A DNA stretch of 64,000 nt from positions 1 to 64,000 of the IMG/VR virus record IMGVR_UViG_3300034092_003233; one strand, written 5' to 3'. Positions 15,004 to 18,291 of the stretch are shown in pieces. The notes beneath the pieces were generated by a model. The model was not told the DNA's origin. It did no database searches and worked only from the letters and a program-made list of their open reading frames with translations. The translations under genes and the position numbers were made by a program. How positions within the stretch are numbered: position 1 is the first letter of the stretch; the number at the start of each line of letters is the position of its first letter. The DNA is from a virus.

Positions 15004-16637
15004 ATTCACTTTCTTATTCCAACATAGTAACAAGTTTCACAATATGGGAGTTTTTGTCGGAATTGACAAAACCATTCACCCAAATGGATATTTACAGGGT
15101 TGGGATAATAGACGCGAATGGTAAATTTCTCAAAGATCCGCAAGACTACAAAACACAACAAGAAGCCAGAGCAGGGAATGCCTTTTATCGTCTTATAGTT
15201 GTTCTAAAGAGAGCATTACGAACATCATCAGATCCAATGGTTAGATACGCCATGACAAATCCGATGGCTGCTCTACGAGCATTGTCAGAAGAAGTAGAAA
15301 CTCTTGGTGGGAATTCTAATTACTTTTTAGAGTATCTTACTCCCATTGTAGAAGAAATGTCTGTTGGTGGTGGTGGAATTGTTGGAGTGGGAGTTCCTGC
15401 TGACAAACCAGAGGATGTTGTAGTTACTCCACAAGCAGCCAAAAAGCACAAGAGAAGAGTAAAAACAGGAGTTGGTAGAAAACTCTTTGAACAGTTATTA
15501 ACCGAAGCAAAACGAGTTGTAGAAACAACCGGTCACATGACACATGTTGGTGATTTCTTATATCATGGTGATCCTATGGTTGCTATAAAGCATTTAGAAG
15601 CAACTCATAAAAGGTTTCATACTGGTAGGGAAACAAAAGATCATAAATTATCATTGAAGGCTGATGGTGGGATGAGCATTGTTATAAAACGACACAAAGA
15701 CGGAACTCCTGCTGTTGCTTATAAAACTGGTGCCGCAGAGTATCGAACCGAAAAGGAAATAGAAGCCGCGGGAAAACCACACTTAACCGCATCTCTTGTT
15801 CCAGCACTTCAATTGGCGAAAAAACTAAATTTAAGACCAGGAACAGCAGTACAAGGAGATTTGTTGTTTGCCGGCTCTGAGCATCGCGGTAGAGCACAGC
15901 CAAATGCAATTAATTATTCTGTTCCACATAATTCCACAATTGGTTTTGCTCCACATTCTGAATACAAAACAGATGGCGGAACATTAGATCTTAGAAAGAC
16001 ATCAAGCCATCCAGATCATTCGGGATTGCAAGCGGAAGGTGCATTTATTCCAAATTTGGCAATAACTAAAAAAACCAAACTAGCATTGACACCAAAAAGA
16101 AATGCTTTGATTTCCAAATCATTGACTGCTGCTAAAAAAATTCTGTCAGATAAACAACTGATAAAATTCAGCAAATCATTACCATCAAATAAAAAATTTC
16201 ACAAAATGTTACAAGAATACTCAAATCACGCAGCAAGAACAAGTGGTGTTAGAACTACTGATAATTTGAGAAAGTTCATTGATATTCACATGAACAAGGC
16301 ATCTCAACGAGGTTTATCCGAAAAAACCAAAAAATCTATGGTAGATTCTTTTCATGGATTCATAAACACAAATTCGCATCATTTTGATAACCTTTTTGCA
16401 GCACACGGACACATAAACACGGCAAAACACGCCATGTTAGATCAATTTGGAGAACATCACGATCAATTTAGTCTTCGTACTCATGGTGGTGAAGAACACG
16501 AAGGATTTGTATCTGCTTTAGGTGTCCCCGGAGTTAGGGAAACCCAAGCAAAGTTTGTCAGAGAAGGTCCCGGTGGATTCCCAGAGAAGAATGTCAAAAA
16601 TGCCATTATTCGCTTCGGAAAAGCACCAGAAGCATAA
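15000..16637 (+). CDS. Two-part protein: conserved phage N-terminal domain plus ligase-like (KxDG) nucleotidyltransferase domain
   Basis: LSLKADGG (motif I), VQGDLLF (III), HEGFV (IV), AKFV (V); IVEE and LLTE sites precede the domain. Confidence 0.65.
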   Translation: MNSLSYSNIVTSFTIWEFLSELTKPFTQMDIYRVGIIDANGKFLKDPQDYKTQQEARAGNAFYRLIVVLKRALRTSSDPMVRYAMTNPMAALRALSEEVETLGGNSNYFLEYLTPIVEEMSVGGGGIVGVGVPADKPEDVVVTPQAAKKHKRRVKTGVGRKLFEQLLTEAKRVVETTGHMTHVGDFLYHGDPMVAIKHLEATHKRFHTGRETKDHKLSLKADGGMSIVIKRHKDGTPAVAYKTGAAEYRTEKEIEAAGKPHLTASLVPALQLAKKLNLRPGTAVQGDLLFAGSEHRGRAQPNAINYSVPHNSTIGFAPHSEYKTDGGTLDLRKTSSHPDHSGLQAEGAFIPNLAITKKTKLALTPKRNALISKSLTAAKKILSDKQLIKFSKSLPSNKKFHKMLQEYSNHAARTSGVRTTDNLRKFIDIHMNKASQRGLSEKTKKSMVDSFHGFINTNSHHFDNLFAAHGHINTAKHAMLDQFGEHHDQFSLRTHGGEEHEGFVSALGVPGVRETQAKFVREGPGGFPEKNVKNAIIRFGKAPEA

Positions 16638-17106: not shown

Positions 17107-17400
17107 ATGAGACTTATCATATCAGCGATCATTTTATTTTTACTTTTTGGGTGTGACACAACACCACAAATAATTCCAGACACAACTCCGGATAATGCAA
17201 TCATATTGGGGATGAAGGACAGAATAAACGAGCCTGGTGCCGGGCATTCTTCGTATAGTTGGGTATTTTGGTATGTTCCAATTCTTATCATAGCACTTTT
17301 ATGGGCGTATAGAGAATATATCCGTAAGCCACTTTTGTGCGATGATGGCGAACAAAAAGACGAAGTTGTAGAAACAAAAAACACACCATCTGGTGTGTAA
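17107..17400 (+). CDS. Lipoprotein with C-terminal TM (u-spanin-like topology)
   Basis: Signal peptide with lipobox LFGC; TM WVFWYVPILIIALLWAY followed by basic residues. Confidence 0.55.
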   Translation: MRLIISAIILFLLFGCDTTPQIIPDTTPDNAIILGMKDRINEPGAGHSSYSWVFWYVPILIIALLWAYREYIRKPLLCDDGEQKDEVVETKNTPSGV

Positions 17401-17419
17401 TTTGCTCCTCAGATTGGAA

Positions 17420-17589
17420 ATCAATTAGAGGGAGCCATGCGAAAAAGGATTAGTATGGTTTTACCGAAGCACTCTCAATTTGCACATCTTCAAAAGGGAC
17501 CCCTATTACAAGGAGGTGATCCAGCCATTACACTCTGGGACAATCCCGGTATGAGAGCCGTTGATAAGGTTAACTCCACTCCAACTGAT
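17420..17589 (-). ncRNA. Putative ~170-nt structured RNA containing a 16S rRNA 3'-end (anti-SD) copy
   Basis: TATAAATA immediately upstream; 5' and 3' ends form an 18-bp stem with 4 G-U pairs only on this strand; GGCUGGAUCACCUCCUU at 17526-17510. Confidence 0.7.
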
Positions 17590-17593
17590 AGAT

Positions 17594-17601
17594 TATTTAT
17601 A
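17594..17601 (-). promoter_or_regulatory. Perfect T4 late promoter with no downstream ORF
   Basis: TATAAATA on minus strand. Confidence 0.7.
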
Positions 17602-17630
17602 ATTTATTCAGTTTTGGAAAAATAAACATA

Positions 17631-18191
17631 CTATTCTTTGGCAGAAATAGTCTGCCATAAACTCTTACAGATGTAATAAGAGTCTACGATGTCGGAAACG
17701 GGGTTTCCGACATCTTTTTTATTGGGGGTAATAATATCTTTCAGCATTAATCCAGTTTCGGATACAAAAGCATTGTACATCGATTCTTTGTCCGCATTTC
17801 CCTTCCCCGTCGCGTTCTTTTTCACTACTGTGGGTGGAATCGTATCCACTGGTATCCCCTGCTGAAATAGTTTGTATTTCAAGATTCCAGTATTTTCCGC
17901 TATATGAAATACTCTGCCCTTGGCGGCGTAGGCGTAATCTTCTATGCCAACCATCTTGCAACCGATTAGGTATTGAATAGCCCATTCCGAAATTGTGTCG
18001 TATCTTTGACATTCGCTATTGTAATCCTCAAATGATTCACCACGAACATTTCCAATAAAGGTTGTTTGTAGTTTTTTAACATCAGACAAAAAGTAAACCA
18101 TGCAAGTATTGAAAGAAAACCCACCCAAGGCAGAGTTGTATATACAAATACTAGGAGAGGTTAAACTATAATCAATTCCCGCATATATCAT
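17631..18191 (-). CDS. RuvC-like Holliday junction resolvase/endonuclease
   Basis: AGIDYS, VGIEDY, PPTVVKK.ATGKGNADK, DIVDSY RNase H-fold acidic motifs. Confidence 0.8.
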   Translation of the reverse strand: MIYAGIDYSLTSPSICIYNSALGGFSFNTCMVYFLSDVKKLQTTFIGNVRGESFEDYNSECQRYDTISEWAIQYLIGCKMVGIEDYAYAAKGRVFHIAENTGILKYKLFQQGIPVDTIPPTVVKKNATGKGNADKESMYNAFVSETGLMLKDIITPNKKDVGNPVSDIVDSYYICKSLWQTISAKE

Positions 18192-18210
18192 GTAGGTATT
18201 TATTAACCTA

Positions 18211-18291
18211 ACAGGAGTAGTGGTTCCGGCGGCCTGAAGATCGGTACTTCAAACGATCCTGAGGCGAAGCGGGTCCGGCCACTACTCCTGT
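18211..18291 (-). other. GC-rich 81-nt rod-like hairpin (possible ncRNA or regulatory element)
   Basis: ACAGGAGTAGTGG/CCACTACTCCTGT 13-bp perfect stem plus inner GCCT/AGGC and AGGATCG/CGATCTT stems. Confidence 0.55.

Follow-up and report, generated by a model that had tools for sequence, protein, structure and literature searches.

Why should a phage carry a copy of the mRNA-selecting tail of the bacterial ribosome in the gap between two of its genes? The question is raised by the 17-mer GGCTGGATCACCTCCTT, which lies at 17526-17510 on the minus strand of the window, the whole 64,000-nt stretch of viral DNA that was analysed. The 17-mer is identical to the 3' tail of the 16S rRNA and sits 68 nt below an exact TATAAATA, inside the gap between two convergent genes. 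The identity is to the common bacterial 16S 3' terminus, from which the tail of the actual host may differ. A previous sequence-only reading had reported both the perfect tail copy and an exact T4 late promoter at 17601-17594, and both were confirmed. The 17-mer occurs once in the window even when two mismatches are allowed, and shuffled sequences predict 0 matches. Judged from the sequences of its relatives, this place is occupied throughout a small clade of T4-like phages, uncultured and from fresh water, by a non-coding RNA (ncRNA) gene of about 215 nt, which is probably switched on late. The ncRNA family is considered real and new; the mechanism of mimicry is what we infer from it. The features on which the argument depends in the first place are the following.

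17594-17601, minus strand: T4-type late promoter box TATAAATA, an exact match, invariant in all 14-16 distinct variants while its flanks vary.
17372-17589, minus strand: predicted ncRNA of about 215 nt, from the inferred start near 17589 (+/-2) to the end of the terminator U-run.
17510-17526, minus strand: 17-nt identity to the 16S 3' tail, whose first 15 nt (17512-17526, GGCUGGAUCACCUCC) are invariant across the family.
17438-17570, minus strand: conserved 133-nt core, with no indels except for 1 additional nt in one lineage pair and a mean column identity of 88%.
17438-17472, minus strand: second conserved block, GUGCWUCGGUAAAAYCAU..UAAUCCUUUUUCGCA, mostly unpaired in the models.
17406-17420, minus strand: short pre-terminator hairpin with both-side changes in two of its four pairs and with the invariant GAGCAAA (17401-17407) at its end.
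17372-17398, minus strand: intrinsic terminator, a hairpin (17381-17398) and a U-run, 97.8% paired, with two pairs changed on both sides.
17688-17724, plus strand: intrinsic terminator in the 3' end of the RuvC-like gene, a 12-bp stem followed by a T-run.

The phage is T4-like and encodes a gp43-type polymerase, UvsX, gp41/gp61-like proteins and RNR. The locus has the composition of a T4-type late transcription unit, with the TATAAATA box at -10 in a genome carrying T4-like replication genes, and NATAAATA boxes also occur 5-30 nt ahead of several gene starts in this phage. Four copies of TATAAATA are present in the window where 5.3 are expected, which is the chance level, and the weight of the box therefore rests on its conservation. 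The box is retained in the L037/L041 lineage although a 1-nt deletion there shifts the frame of the open reading frame (ORF) on the opposite strand. The start of the RNA near 17589 is inferred from the spacing of T4 late promoters. Its end had been placed at 17420, giving a transcript of about 170 nt; transcription probably continues to the terminator at about 17372. This element has the form of an intrinsic terminator, a hairpin and then a U-run whose pairing is preserved among the relatives, and its helix contains several G-U pairs that become mismatches if read on the plus strand. The minus strand across the predicted ncRNA holds no conserved ORF in the relatives. Short contigs of relatives from three RNA libraries of two studies cover the conserved core and carry no strand or end information. 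The X3 and X4 contigs match the core from end to end (exactly 17438-17570), and that of X5 matches 17436-17534; DNA carry-over is possible in these libraries, and the uncovered flanks carry no meaning. In the X4 contig, which comes from an L037-like relative, the pre-terminator hairpin GCUA/UAGC is replaced by GCCA/UGGC.

The neighbouring gene encodes a RuvC-like Holliday-junction resolvase (phrog_159) of 186 aa. The combination that marks a TnpB/IscB-omega RNA locus, a RuvC protein with a length of some 350 aa or more and a guide RNA overlapping the 3' end of its gene, is absent here. The ncRNA has its own promoter after the RuvC stop codon. The plus-strand terminator within the RuvC-like gene is invariant in all relatives, wobble positions included, and forms the longest invariant run of the RuvC alignment. 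The sole change in its stem (in L048) leaves a G-U pair if the plus strand is read, but mismatched bases if the minus strand is. Given this terminator, late transcripts of the plus strand very likely cross the RNA gene in antisense, and the convergent transcripts around the element overlap by about 330 nt.

The relatives indicate how much of this arrangement is under selection. About 25 related viral contigs encode a RuvC-like protein at least 82% identical, and all of them carry the element, as do nine metagenome loci. The promoter box, 15 nt of the 16S copy (GGCTGGATCACCTCC) and the terminator, with compensatory changes, are kept throughout these contigs and loci. The element follows the RuvC stop by about 110 nt in every relative above that threshold, so that the proposed search for the 17-mer beside the RuvC-like gene recovered it in all of them with its first 15 nt unchanged. 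Three blocks, TATAAATA, GGCTGGATCACCTCC and ATAGGGGTCC, are invariant in all such relatives, and the mean column identity over the predicted ncRNA (alignment A2) is 82%. The covariance model R1 of the core finds a single match in the genome, at 159.8 bits. The family is narrow and comprises about seven lineages. More distant relatives (RuvC 35-55% identical) have a differing sequence downstream in which the element was not found, and R1 returned only noise (13 bits) on five of their records, including a complete 145-kb genome. No copies were found in bacterial and archaeal genomes with two different patterns, and blastn at distant sensitivity gave no match in 50,697 phage records. Rfam 15 at the gathering score gave 0 matches over the whole window; under permissive filters, 17300-17700 returned noise (E of at least 0.42 and no score above 21 bits, the gathering scores being 50-100). 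No tRNA or tmRNA was detected, and no published RNA of this family was found in the literature. The belief that no phage RNA of this kind had been described is thus supported by both Rfam and the literature.

Two trivial origins of the 17-mer were considered and rejected. A captured 16S fragment is contradicted by the lack of any 16S similarity outside the 17-mer. The 17-mer also equals a classic 16S reverse primer, and the concern that a chimera or primer had produced it was already present in the sequence-only reading; over 30 independent assemblies place it at the same site, the flanks differ from lineage to lineage, and some lineages match over only 15 nt, all of which argues against such an artefact. 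The second conserved block was examined as a further site of pairing with 16S and was rejected as well, its complementarity being at the level of shuffles only.

The identity of the 17-mer is by itself weak evidence, since 2.9 million viral contigs contain nine unrelated exact matches, by chance or in coding sequence. Such cases are bound to turn up when many windows are scanned, and the element lies between convergent genes whose transcripts overlap. It might then be a structured 3' UTR, a buffer of convergent transcription or a cis-antisense module for the RuvC and plus-strand operons, its likeness to 16S being coincidental. We consider this improbable. No invariant run of the element is longer than the 16S-identical block, and the SD-like partner of that block comes second; a chance 17-mer would very rarely fall on precisely the part of a conserved RNA that is most constrained, and a dedicated promoter box stands between the RuvC stop and the element. 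On comparative grounds, conservation lifts the identity above chance.

The same nucleotides could be conserved for a protein. The sequence-only reading had seen no credible ORF in the gap and had missed the following one, which was subsequently judged not to be protein-coding.

17437-17625, plus strand: opposite-strand ORF of 62 aa (56 aa from the ATG at 17455).

A small protein gene of 56 aa at 17455-17625 on the plus strand, whose QGGDPA codons happen to match the complement of the 16S tail, has several features on its side. The ORF (56-62 codons) is open in every relative, in all 14-16 variants; its ATG is conserved with an AAGGA 7-8 nt ahead, even in the most divergent member (L086); the sole indel in its body is of 3 nt and the core is free of indels. 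It has also been called by gene-prediction programs (P0001-P0005, one of them named hypothetical protein), and the product has the motifs GPLLQGGDPA and TLW.NP.MR. Its evolution is nevertheless that of a non-coding frame. The dN/dS is 0.90, against 0.73-1.16 in the five other frames and 0.09 in RuvC, and the dS is 0.21 against 1.24 in RuvC, i.e., six times lower. The invariant sites are spread evenly over the three codon positions (27, 25 and 24 of 39) with no wobble bias, and nine of 11 fourfold sites are invariant compared with ten of 44 in RuvC (p = 5e-4). A stretch of seven codons is hypervariable, and the C-terminus is frameshifted in one lineage while the promoter-box nucleotides are retained. 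A search of 5.8 billion proteins yielded only five close clusters, none beyond the clade, and a back-translated scan of metagenomes that admitted any synonymous codon recovered only loci with the exact 15-mer. From the dN/dS, the low dS and the equal conservation of codon positions it follows that selection acts on the nucleotides and not on a protein. The small protein is rejected on these tests, with a probability that we regard as very low. A type I toxin-antitoxin pair is not indicated either, the product being non-hydrophobic with the same dN/dS. An ORF that is always open and called by gene callers can therefore be an RNA gene read on the wrong strand.

Which strand is the RNA can be approached through the fold. 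The helices and blocks concerned are listed here.

17571-17589, minus strand: 5' strand of the closing stem P1, pairing with 17420-17437.
17420-17437, minus strand: 3' strand of P1, pairing with 17571-17589.
17552-17557, minus strand: 5' strand of helix P2 (CUCUCA), pairing with UGAGRG at 17472-17477.
17472-17477, minus strand: 3' strand of P2 (UGAGAG), pairing with 17552-17557.
17497-17522, minus strand: predicted SD/anti-SD-like hairpin from RNAalifold, GGAUC-A-CCU, a 9-nt variable loop and AGG-GGUCC.
17497-17506, minus strand: SD-like partner block AUAGGGGUCC, the 3' arm of the predicted anti-SD hairpin.

The structured domain opens right at the predicted start of the ncRNA. In this phage P1 has 18 bp, four of them G-U, and a duplex energy of -22.4 kcal/mol (z = -4.9 against shuffles). 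The 18-bp closing stem described before thus exists here and is not a feature of the family, as the relatives have 7-10 bp, with changes on both sides at alignment columns 5, 12, 18 and 19. A combined shuffle test over seven lineages gives p of about 0.001 for P1; the partners were picked by energy, which makes this moderate evidence. P2 is 100% paired in 13 distinct sequences, and one of its pairs alternates between U-A and U-G, the latter corresponding to an A-C mismatch on the plus strand. The inner helix CUCUCA/UGAGAG, the GGGA-UUG-UCCC hairpin and the weak pairing of the anti-SD with a downstream block, now the anti-SD/AGGGGUCC pairing, are all present as the sequence-only reading had them, and its five G-U pairs were recovered in a recount over P1 and P2. 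The covariance check that it had proposed gave a divided result: the terminator and the pre-terminator hairpin covary, whereas the predicted helices P2 and the anti-SD hairpin never vary. Covariation of single columns is uninformative here, the lineages being too few and many random column pairs appearing to covary. The MFE of the whole molecule is ordinary (z = -1.0). A conserved helix between two variable segments was also considered and rejected; cognate segments pair no better than swapped ones (p = 0.33), and the helix is absent in the lineage of the window.

The consensus fold reaches -35.8 kcal/mol on the minus strand against -26.4 on the plus strand, and seven of eight single-lineage folds are better on the minus strand. 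The helices contain 40 G-U against two A-C cells, a count that is biased by their having been predicted on the minus strand. As the RNA strand, the minus strand is favoured by the promoter, the terminator and the G-U pairs alike.

The main rival takes the plus strand as the functional molecule. The 3' part of a late operon mRNA (promoter at about 16634, terminator at 17688-17724) would dock the 30S subunit tightly through the 16S-tail complement AAGGAGGUGAUCCAGCC, in the manner of the rre elements, and would thereby sequester ribosomes or control the fate of the mRNA, the minus-strand RNA being an antisense regulator or a by-product. The mRNAs of rre type, with 16-17-nt complementarity to the 16S 3' end, do bind 30S strongly (PMC5711450). 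The conserved plus-strand terminator lies 90 nt past the element, inside RuvC, and plus-strand transcripts consequently contain the element; a CCCC strand lying upstream is able to mask its SD, a further likeness to rre. The plus strand indeed offers the 16-17-nt perfect complementarity, AAGGAGGTGATCCAGCC at 17510-17526. However, in rre the tail complement on the functional strand ends in the GUG or AUG of a conserved sORF of 14-18 aa (PMC5711450). Here GCC replaces GUG at that position, the frame has a dN/dS of 0.90, and the next codon varies by lineage (ATT, GTT, AAG, GAG, ACA, ACG). The rre transcripts, of about 165 nt, have their own promoter and terminator on the SD strand, whereas both lie on the opposite strand in the phage. 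No plus-strand promoter is found near the element and the invariant TATAAATA would have no role on that strand, on which the G-U pairs of P1, P2 and the hairpin turn into A-C mismatches and the consensus fold is weaker. Docking by the plus strand is for these reasons quite unlikely, both as the function of the element and in the purposes proposed for it. We return to the minus-strand ncRNA gene, whose reality is highly likely; the 16S identity is probably functional on its RNA.

What the tail copy does on that RNA depends on how it is displayed. In the anti-SD hairpin, as predicted, GGAUCACCU pairs with the equally invariant SD-like AGGGGUCC; the eight pairs are all invariant and the loop is variable, so that no covariation is possible. 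Partition functions place CCUCC mostly in pairing with GGGGU in six of eight lineages. The same minus-strand ncRNA could act instead by base pairing, its anti-SD copy, released from the weak hairpin, masking the SDs of host or earlier phage mRNAs and stopping their translation in the manner of the C-rich anti-SD sRNAs of Bacillota. With its CCUCC core it could pair with any SD, and in the consensus hairpin the final CC(UU) is a loop segment, with intermediate pairing probabilities. No more than about 35% of the genes of this phage possess an SD core and some starts look leaderless, so that part of the phage programme might be spared. On the other hand, the invariant AGGGGUCC sequesters the anti-SD, the conserved identity runs into GGCUGGAU, which SD pairing does not need, the neighbouring late genes 16660, 17107 and 12199 with strong SDs would be hit too, and no specific target has been identified. 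Masking of SDs is accordingly rated as unlikely. The 16S identity extends 5' into GGCUGG, where no mRNA SD pairs in the mature ribosome, and mimicry of the tail as a recognised object is for this reason favoured over SD pairing.

The mechanism proposed is as follows. The TATAAATA box would start a late minus-strand RNA near 17589 and the intrinsic terminator would end it near 17372. The RNA would fold into a stem-closed domain, the most conserved part of which is the 15-17-nt copy of the 16S tail, spanning the last bases of helix 45 plus GAUCACCUCC. Held in a hairpin by the SD-like AGGGGUCC, this copy may imitate either the 16S tail or the SD/anti-SD helix. Produced in quantity late in infection, the RNA would serve as a decoy for a factor that recognises the tail. 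One candidate target is a ribosomal protein that binds the tail, for instance bS21, the partner of OLE RNA, and titration of such a factor would reprogramme the choice of mRNAs on which the host ribosomes start. Neither a bS21 gene nor any other partner was found in the 75-kb fragment, which is only 41% complete and hence uninformative as to bS21. The other candidate is a defence or toxin RNase that cuts the anti-SD, of the MazF-mt11 type (site C^ACCU) or the RelE1 type; such toxins cut exactly inside the copied sequence (PMC12274833; PMC12620021). An anti-SD sequestered in a hairpin might escape single-strand-specific enzymes of the MazF type. Drawn by analogy, a decoy for a protein or a nuclease is a serious but tentative proposal. 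That a late, abundant RNA shields the ribosomes from anti-SD-clipping toxins or titrates a tail-binding factor is put forward with still more reserve, as a possibility on the doubtful side.

Several proteins by which phages interfere with translation are known, among them RegA, RegB, phage bS21 and S1-binding factors. To our knowledge, no described phage RNA copies the tail with which the ribosome selects mRNA. If the mimicry is functional, it would represent a new way to control or protect translation initiation during infection, and it could work as a counter-defence, aimed at the anti-SD-removing toxins described recently. With a short, sharply bounded element and a clear mutational target in the 15-mer and its SD-like partner, the idea is open to direct tests in vitro that do not require the uncultured phage.

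Several known systems share parts of this design. Pseudo-ToxI of phage phiTE and the 6S RNA are abundant structured RNAs that imitate nucleic-acid ligands to titrate proteins; the phage RNA would imitate another object, the 16S 3' tail, and belongs to another family, with a putative decoy function. The C-rich anti-SD sRNAs (RsaE/RoxS, RNAIII and the icaR 3' UTR) use pyrimidine-rich motifs to pair with SDs and block initiation. In these RNAs the motif measures no more than 4-7 nt, is placed in a loop and does not copy the 16S tail, whereas the phage RNA has 15 invariant nt equal to 16S, mostly in a predicted stem, and no Rfam match. The rreB/rreR elements are alike in the 16-17-nt perfect relation to the 16S 3' end, in the small conserved transcript and in its partial masking by intramolecular pairing, and rreB co-sediments with 30S (PMC5711450). 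They are alphaproteobacterial and non-phage, and their functional strand holds the complement of the tail, whereas here the promoter-bearing strand holds the tail copy itself.

OLE RNA is likewise an ncRNA with an exact host-type anti-SD copy paired internally to an SD-like strand. This P6 helix imitates the mRNA-16S duplex and is the site that binds bS21, and its mutation gives a phenotype (PMC12054373). OLE is a bacterial RNA of Bacillota and part of a membrane RNP, about 600 nt long and with a 6-nt copy (CCUCCU), whereas the phage RNA has about 215 nt, is phage-encoded under a late promoter, carries an identity of 15-17 nt that reaches helix 45, and has no sequence or Rfam relationship to OLE. 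By analogy, the predicted phage hairpin resembles the SD/anti-SD mimic of OLE that binds bS21 and, if its mimicry is functional, would be a natural counterpart of the OLE-bS21 interaction.

The source contig of the window is viral (75 kb, IMG/VR; completeness estimate 41%), and the phage carries a T4-like gene set comprising a gp43-type DNA polymerase, UvsX, gp41-/gp61-like helicase and primase, RNR and thymidylate synthase. The element, a predicted minus-strand non-coding RNA of about 215 nt, sits in a 230-nt gap flanked by two convergent genes. The features of the locus are the following:

Ends at 17400, plus strand: 97-aa ORF, one flank of the gap
Stop at 17631, minus strand: RuvC-like resolvase gene (RuvC), 186 aa, the other flank
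17601-17594, minus strand: late-type promoter box TATAAATA, exact match
17526-17510, minus strand: 16S-tail 17-mer GGCTGGATCACCTCCTT, exact identity
17398-17372, minus strand: predicted terminator, hairpin and U-run
17437-17625, plus strand: ORF of 62 aa, probable start at 17455, preceded by an AAGGA SD
17688-17724, plus strand: terminator, 12-bp hairpin and T-run, inside the RuvC 3' coding region (residues KKDVGNPVSDI)
18191-18203, minus strand: late-type box AATAAATA, ending 5-6 nt ahead of the RuvC ATG
18204-18291, minus strand: highly stable hairpin, about 80 nt long, in the gap that separates the cytosine methyltransferase gene from the RuvC-like gene

The sequence-only reading had described a late promoter, a perfect copy of the 16S tail and a set of stems; all three are present, and GGCTGGATCACCTCCTT occurs a single time in the window, where shuffles predict none. 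The box TATAAATA was found four times in the window against 5.3 expected, which is chance frequency on its own. It lies 4-7 nt ahead of the first closing-stem base, and NATAAATA boxes are placed 5-30 nt upstream of several genes in the phage. The folding energy of the whole RNA is ordinary (z = -1.0).

The RuvC-like protein, used as query against viral contigs, retrieved 39 loci. The element lies about 110 nt past the RuvC stop in all 25 loci with a RuvC identity of at least 82%, so that at least the first 15 nt of the 17-mer recur beside this gene in relatives, as the same reading had suggested checking; different genes occupy its position where the identity is 35-55%. A separate scan of 2.9 million viral contigs for the 17-mer gave 34 matches: 22 from this family, three genuine 16S gene ends and nine unrelated, some within coding sequence. 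Since the bare 17-mer arises by chance at a low rate, the argument must rest on conservation. The three 16S gene ends (L018, L025 and L031, filed as viral) show helix 45 sequence before the 17-mer and spacer after it, and probably stem from flanking host sequence or from cellular DNA that was misbinned. Two unrelated high-GC phage contigs (L022 and L035) hold the complement of the 17-mer inside conserved protein-coding sequence; ordinary genes can therefore yield exact 16S-tail matches.

In an alignment of 14 distinct variants, the blocks TATAAATA, GGCTGGATCACCTCC, ATAGGGGTCC, TGAGRGTGCWTCGGTAAAAYCAT, TAATCCTTTTTCGCA and GAGCAAA are unchanging and the segments between them vary freely. The 133-nt core (17438-17570) is constant in length across lineages despite about 12-20% divergence. 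Within it, a hypervariable segment of 18-19 nt (17478-17496) has gained or lost no base in any lineage; a pairing partner for this segment was sought and none was established. Members of the family all belong to one narrow clade, sampled mostly in fresh water and lakes. A covariance model built on the core finds one copy in the genome of the window and has no credible match in five relatives that are more distant, one of them a complete 145-kb genome. The element was absent from 185,579 species genomes of bacteria and archaea; there was no match among 50,697 deposited phage genomes and no matching family in Rfam, and no paper describing such an RNA was found in the literature.

The locus might instead serve a real plus-strand peptide, a possibility that the sequence-only reading had raised against itself, and the 62-aa ORF indeed stays open in all variants and is predicted by gene callers. 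This possibility is contradicted by a dN/dS of 0.90 (0.73-1.16 in the five other frames), compared with 0.09 in RuvC, and by third positions that are not relaxed. Invariant sites at codon positions 1, 2 and 3 number 27, 25 and 24 (39 ungapped codons), whereas in RuvC from the same genomes the invariant share of third positions is only 25% (p = 1.5e-5). Among fourfold-degenerate codons that keep their amino acid, 9 of 11 are frozen in the ORF and 10 of 44 in RuvC (p = 5e-4), and dS is 0.21 versus 1.24. When GGDPAxTLW was back-translated into every synonymous codon and used as a metagenome query, the exact 15-mer was retained in all nine loci. Deletion of a single nucleotide puts the C-terminus out of frame in the L037/L041 lineage, yet the nucleotides GTATAAATAC are kept, which indicates that nucleotides, not amino acids, are selected there. 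Close relatives of the ORF product number only five among 5.8 billion proteins. The codon-position, fourfold, dN/dS and synonymous-variant tests reject the protein-gene reading, and a real small protein is highly improbable. The region is under strong nucleotide-level purifying selection, roughly six times slower than neutral.

The promoter box, the terminator and hairpin changes, the G-U cells, the folds and the closing stem P1 favour the minus strand. Both-side base-pair changes occur in the minus-strand terminator and in the small hairpin before it. The named structure has 98.9% of its cells paired, against 31-60% with the partners slid, and its covariation score was reached by none of 500 shuffles. 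The helix cells hold 40 G-U versus 2 A-C, a biased count since the helices were predicted on the minus strand. The consensus fold is -35.8 kcal/mol on the minus strand and -26.4 kcal/mol on the plus strand, and seven of eight single sequences fold better on the former. P1 (17571-17589 with 17420-17437) spans 18 bp in the window phage (-22.4 kcal/mol) and is shorter, at 7-10 bp, in relatives, with both-side changes at four positions (combined shuffle test, p about 0.001).

On the other hand, the plus-strand terminator hairpin at 17688-17724 is unchanged in all relatives at every codon position, wobble included, save one stem change compatible with the plus strand only; no other invariant run in the RuvC gene is as long. 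Given this conservation, plus-strand late transcripts from a box at 16634 very probably cross the RNA gene antisense, which counts against an exclusive minus-strand reading. With the terminator inside RuvC, the convergent late transcripts would share about 330 nt, an overlap that could allow double-stranded RNA to form. That the 16S identity is a coincidence within a structured 3' UTR or antisense module is improbable, and a minus-strand RNA gene is likely to be real.

Expression data consist of assembled contigs only. Two freshwater metatranscriptome runs from one study each gave one contig (151 or 168 nt) of an L037-like relative, aligned exactly to 17438-17570; a third run from a separate study, labelled marine, gave a 151-nt contig over 17436-17534. 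A 2.2-kb contig spanning the entire locus comes from a run that is labelled metagenomic RNA-Seq but is only guessed to be RNA. The core occurs in RNA libraries, the contigs showing presence alone and not strand, ends or level.

Upstream of RuvC, the hairpin at 18204-18291 (-46 kcal/mol, z = -6.5) lacks a U-run. The L036, L038 and L048 lineages retain the outer stem CAGGAGUAGUGG/CCACUACUCCUG, and their inner stems differ in sequence but still pair; the hairpin is missing where the upstream gene differs. At the RuvC box relatives carry CATAAATA, CTAAATA or CTACATA; its distance from the ATG would make the RuvC mRNA leaderless or nearly so. Only about 35% of the phage genes (about 52 starts) show a recognisable SD core in the 20 nt next to the start and many have none, a hint that the host relies little on SDs.

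The invariant 15-mer corresponds to E. coli 16S 1525-1539, as counted back from the 3' end at 1542, and joins the last five bases of the helix 45 3' strand to GAUCACCUCC. Comparison of the rest of the RNA with 16S gave no further resemblance. RNAalifold pairs GGAUC-A-CCU with AGG-GGUCC around a 9-nt loop, the only variable part; both arms are invariant, so covariation cannot confirm this hairpin. Partition functions for eight lineages show CCUCC paired with GGGGU for the most part in six of them. In the predicted arrangement an SD-like strand is paired to the anti-SD copy.

We tentatively infer that the late minus-strand RNA may imitate the tail of 16S, or else the helix of SD and anti-SD, and would divert, as a decoy, a protein or nuclease that recognises the tail. 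A decoy is preferred because the identity reaches GGCUGG, unnecessary for SD pairing, because the anti-SD has a dedicated and equally conserved internal partner, and because OLE RNA and bS21 offer a precedent. Masking of SDs by the same RNA is unlikely, since nearby late genes of the phage use strong SDs and a general SD sponge would harm them. Docking of the 30S by a plus-strand element is rather less likely: rre mRNAs, with a 17-nt complement of the 16S tail, do bind 30S (PMC5711450), but the start codon that defines them is absent at the element.

The proposed decoy has its closest parallel in P6 of OLE RNA, where ribosomal protein bS21 binds the same arrangement of anti-SD copy and SD-like strand (PMC12054373). 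Among nucleases, MazF-mt11 removes the anti-SD from 16S at C^ACCU (PMC12274833), a site present within the copied sequence, and RelE1 cleaves just upstream of the anti-SD (PMC12620021). Among known kinds of RNA, the element is grouped with the mimic and anti-SD RNAs of phages or bacteria; a demonstration of tail mimicry would make it categorically new.
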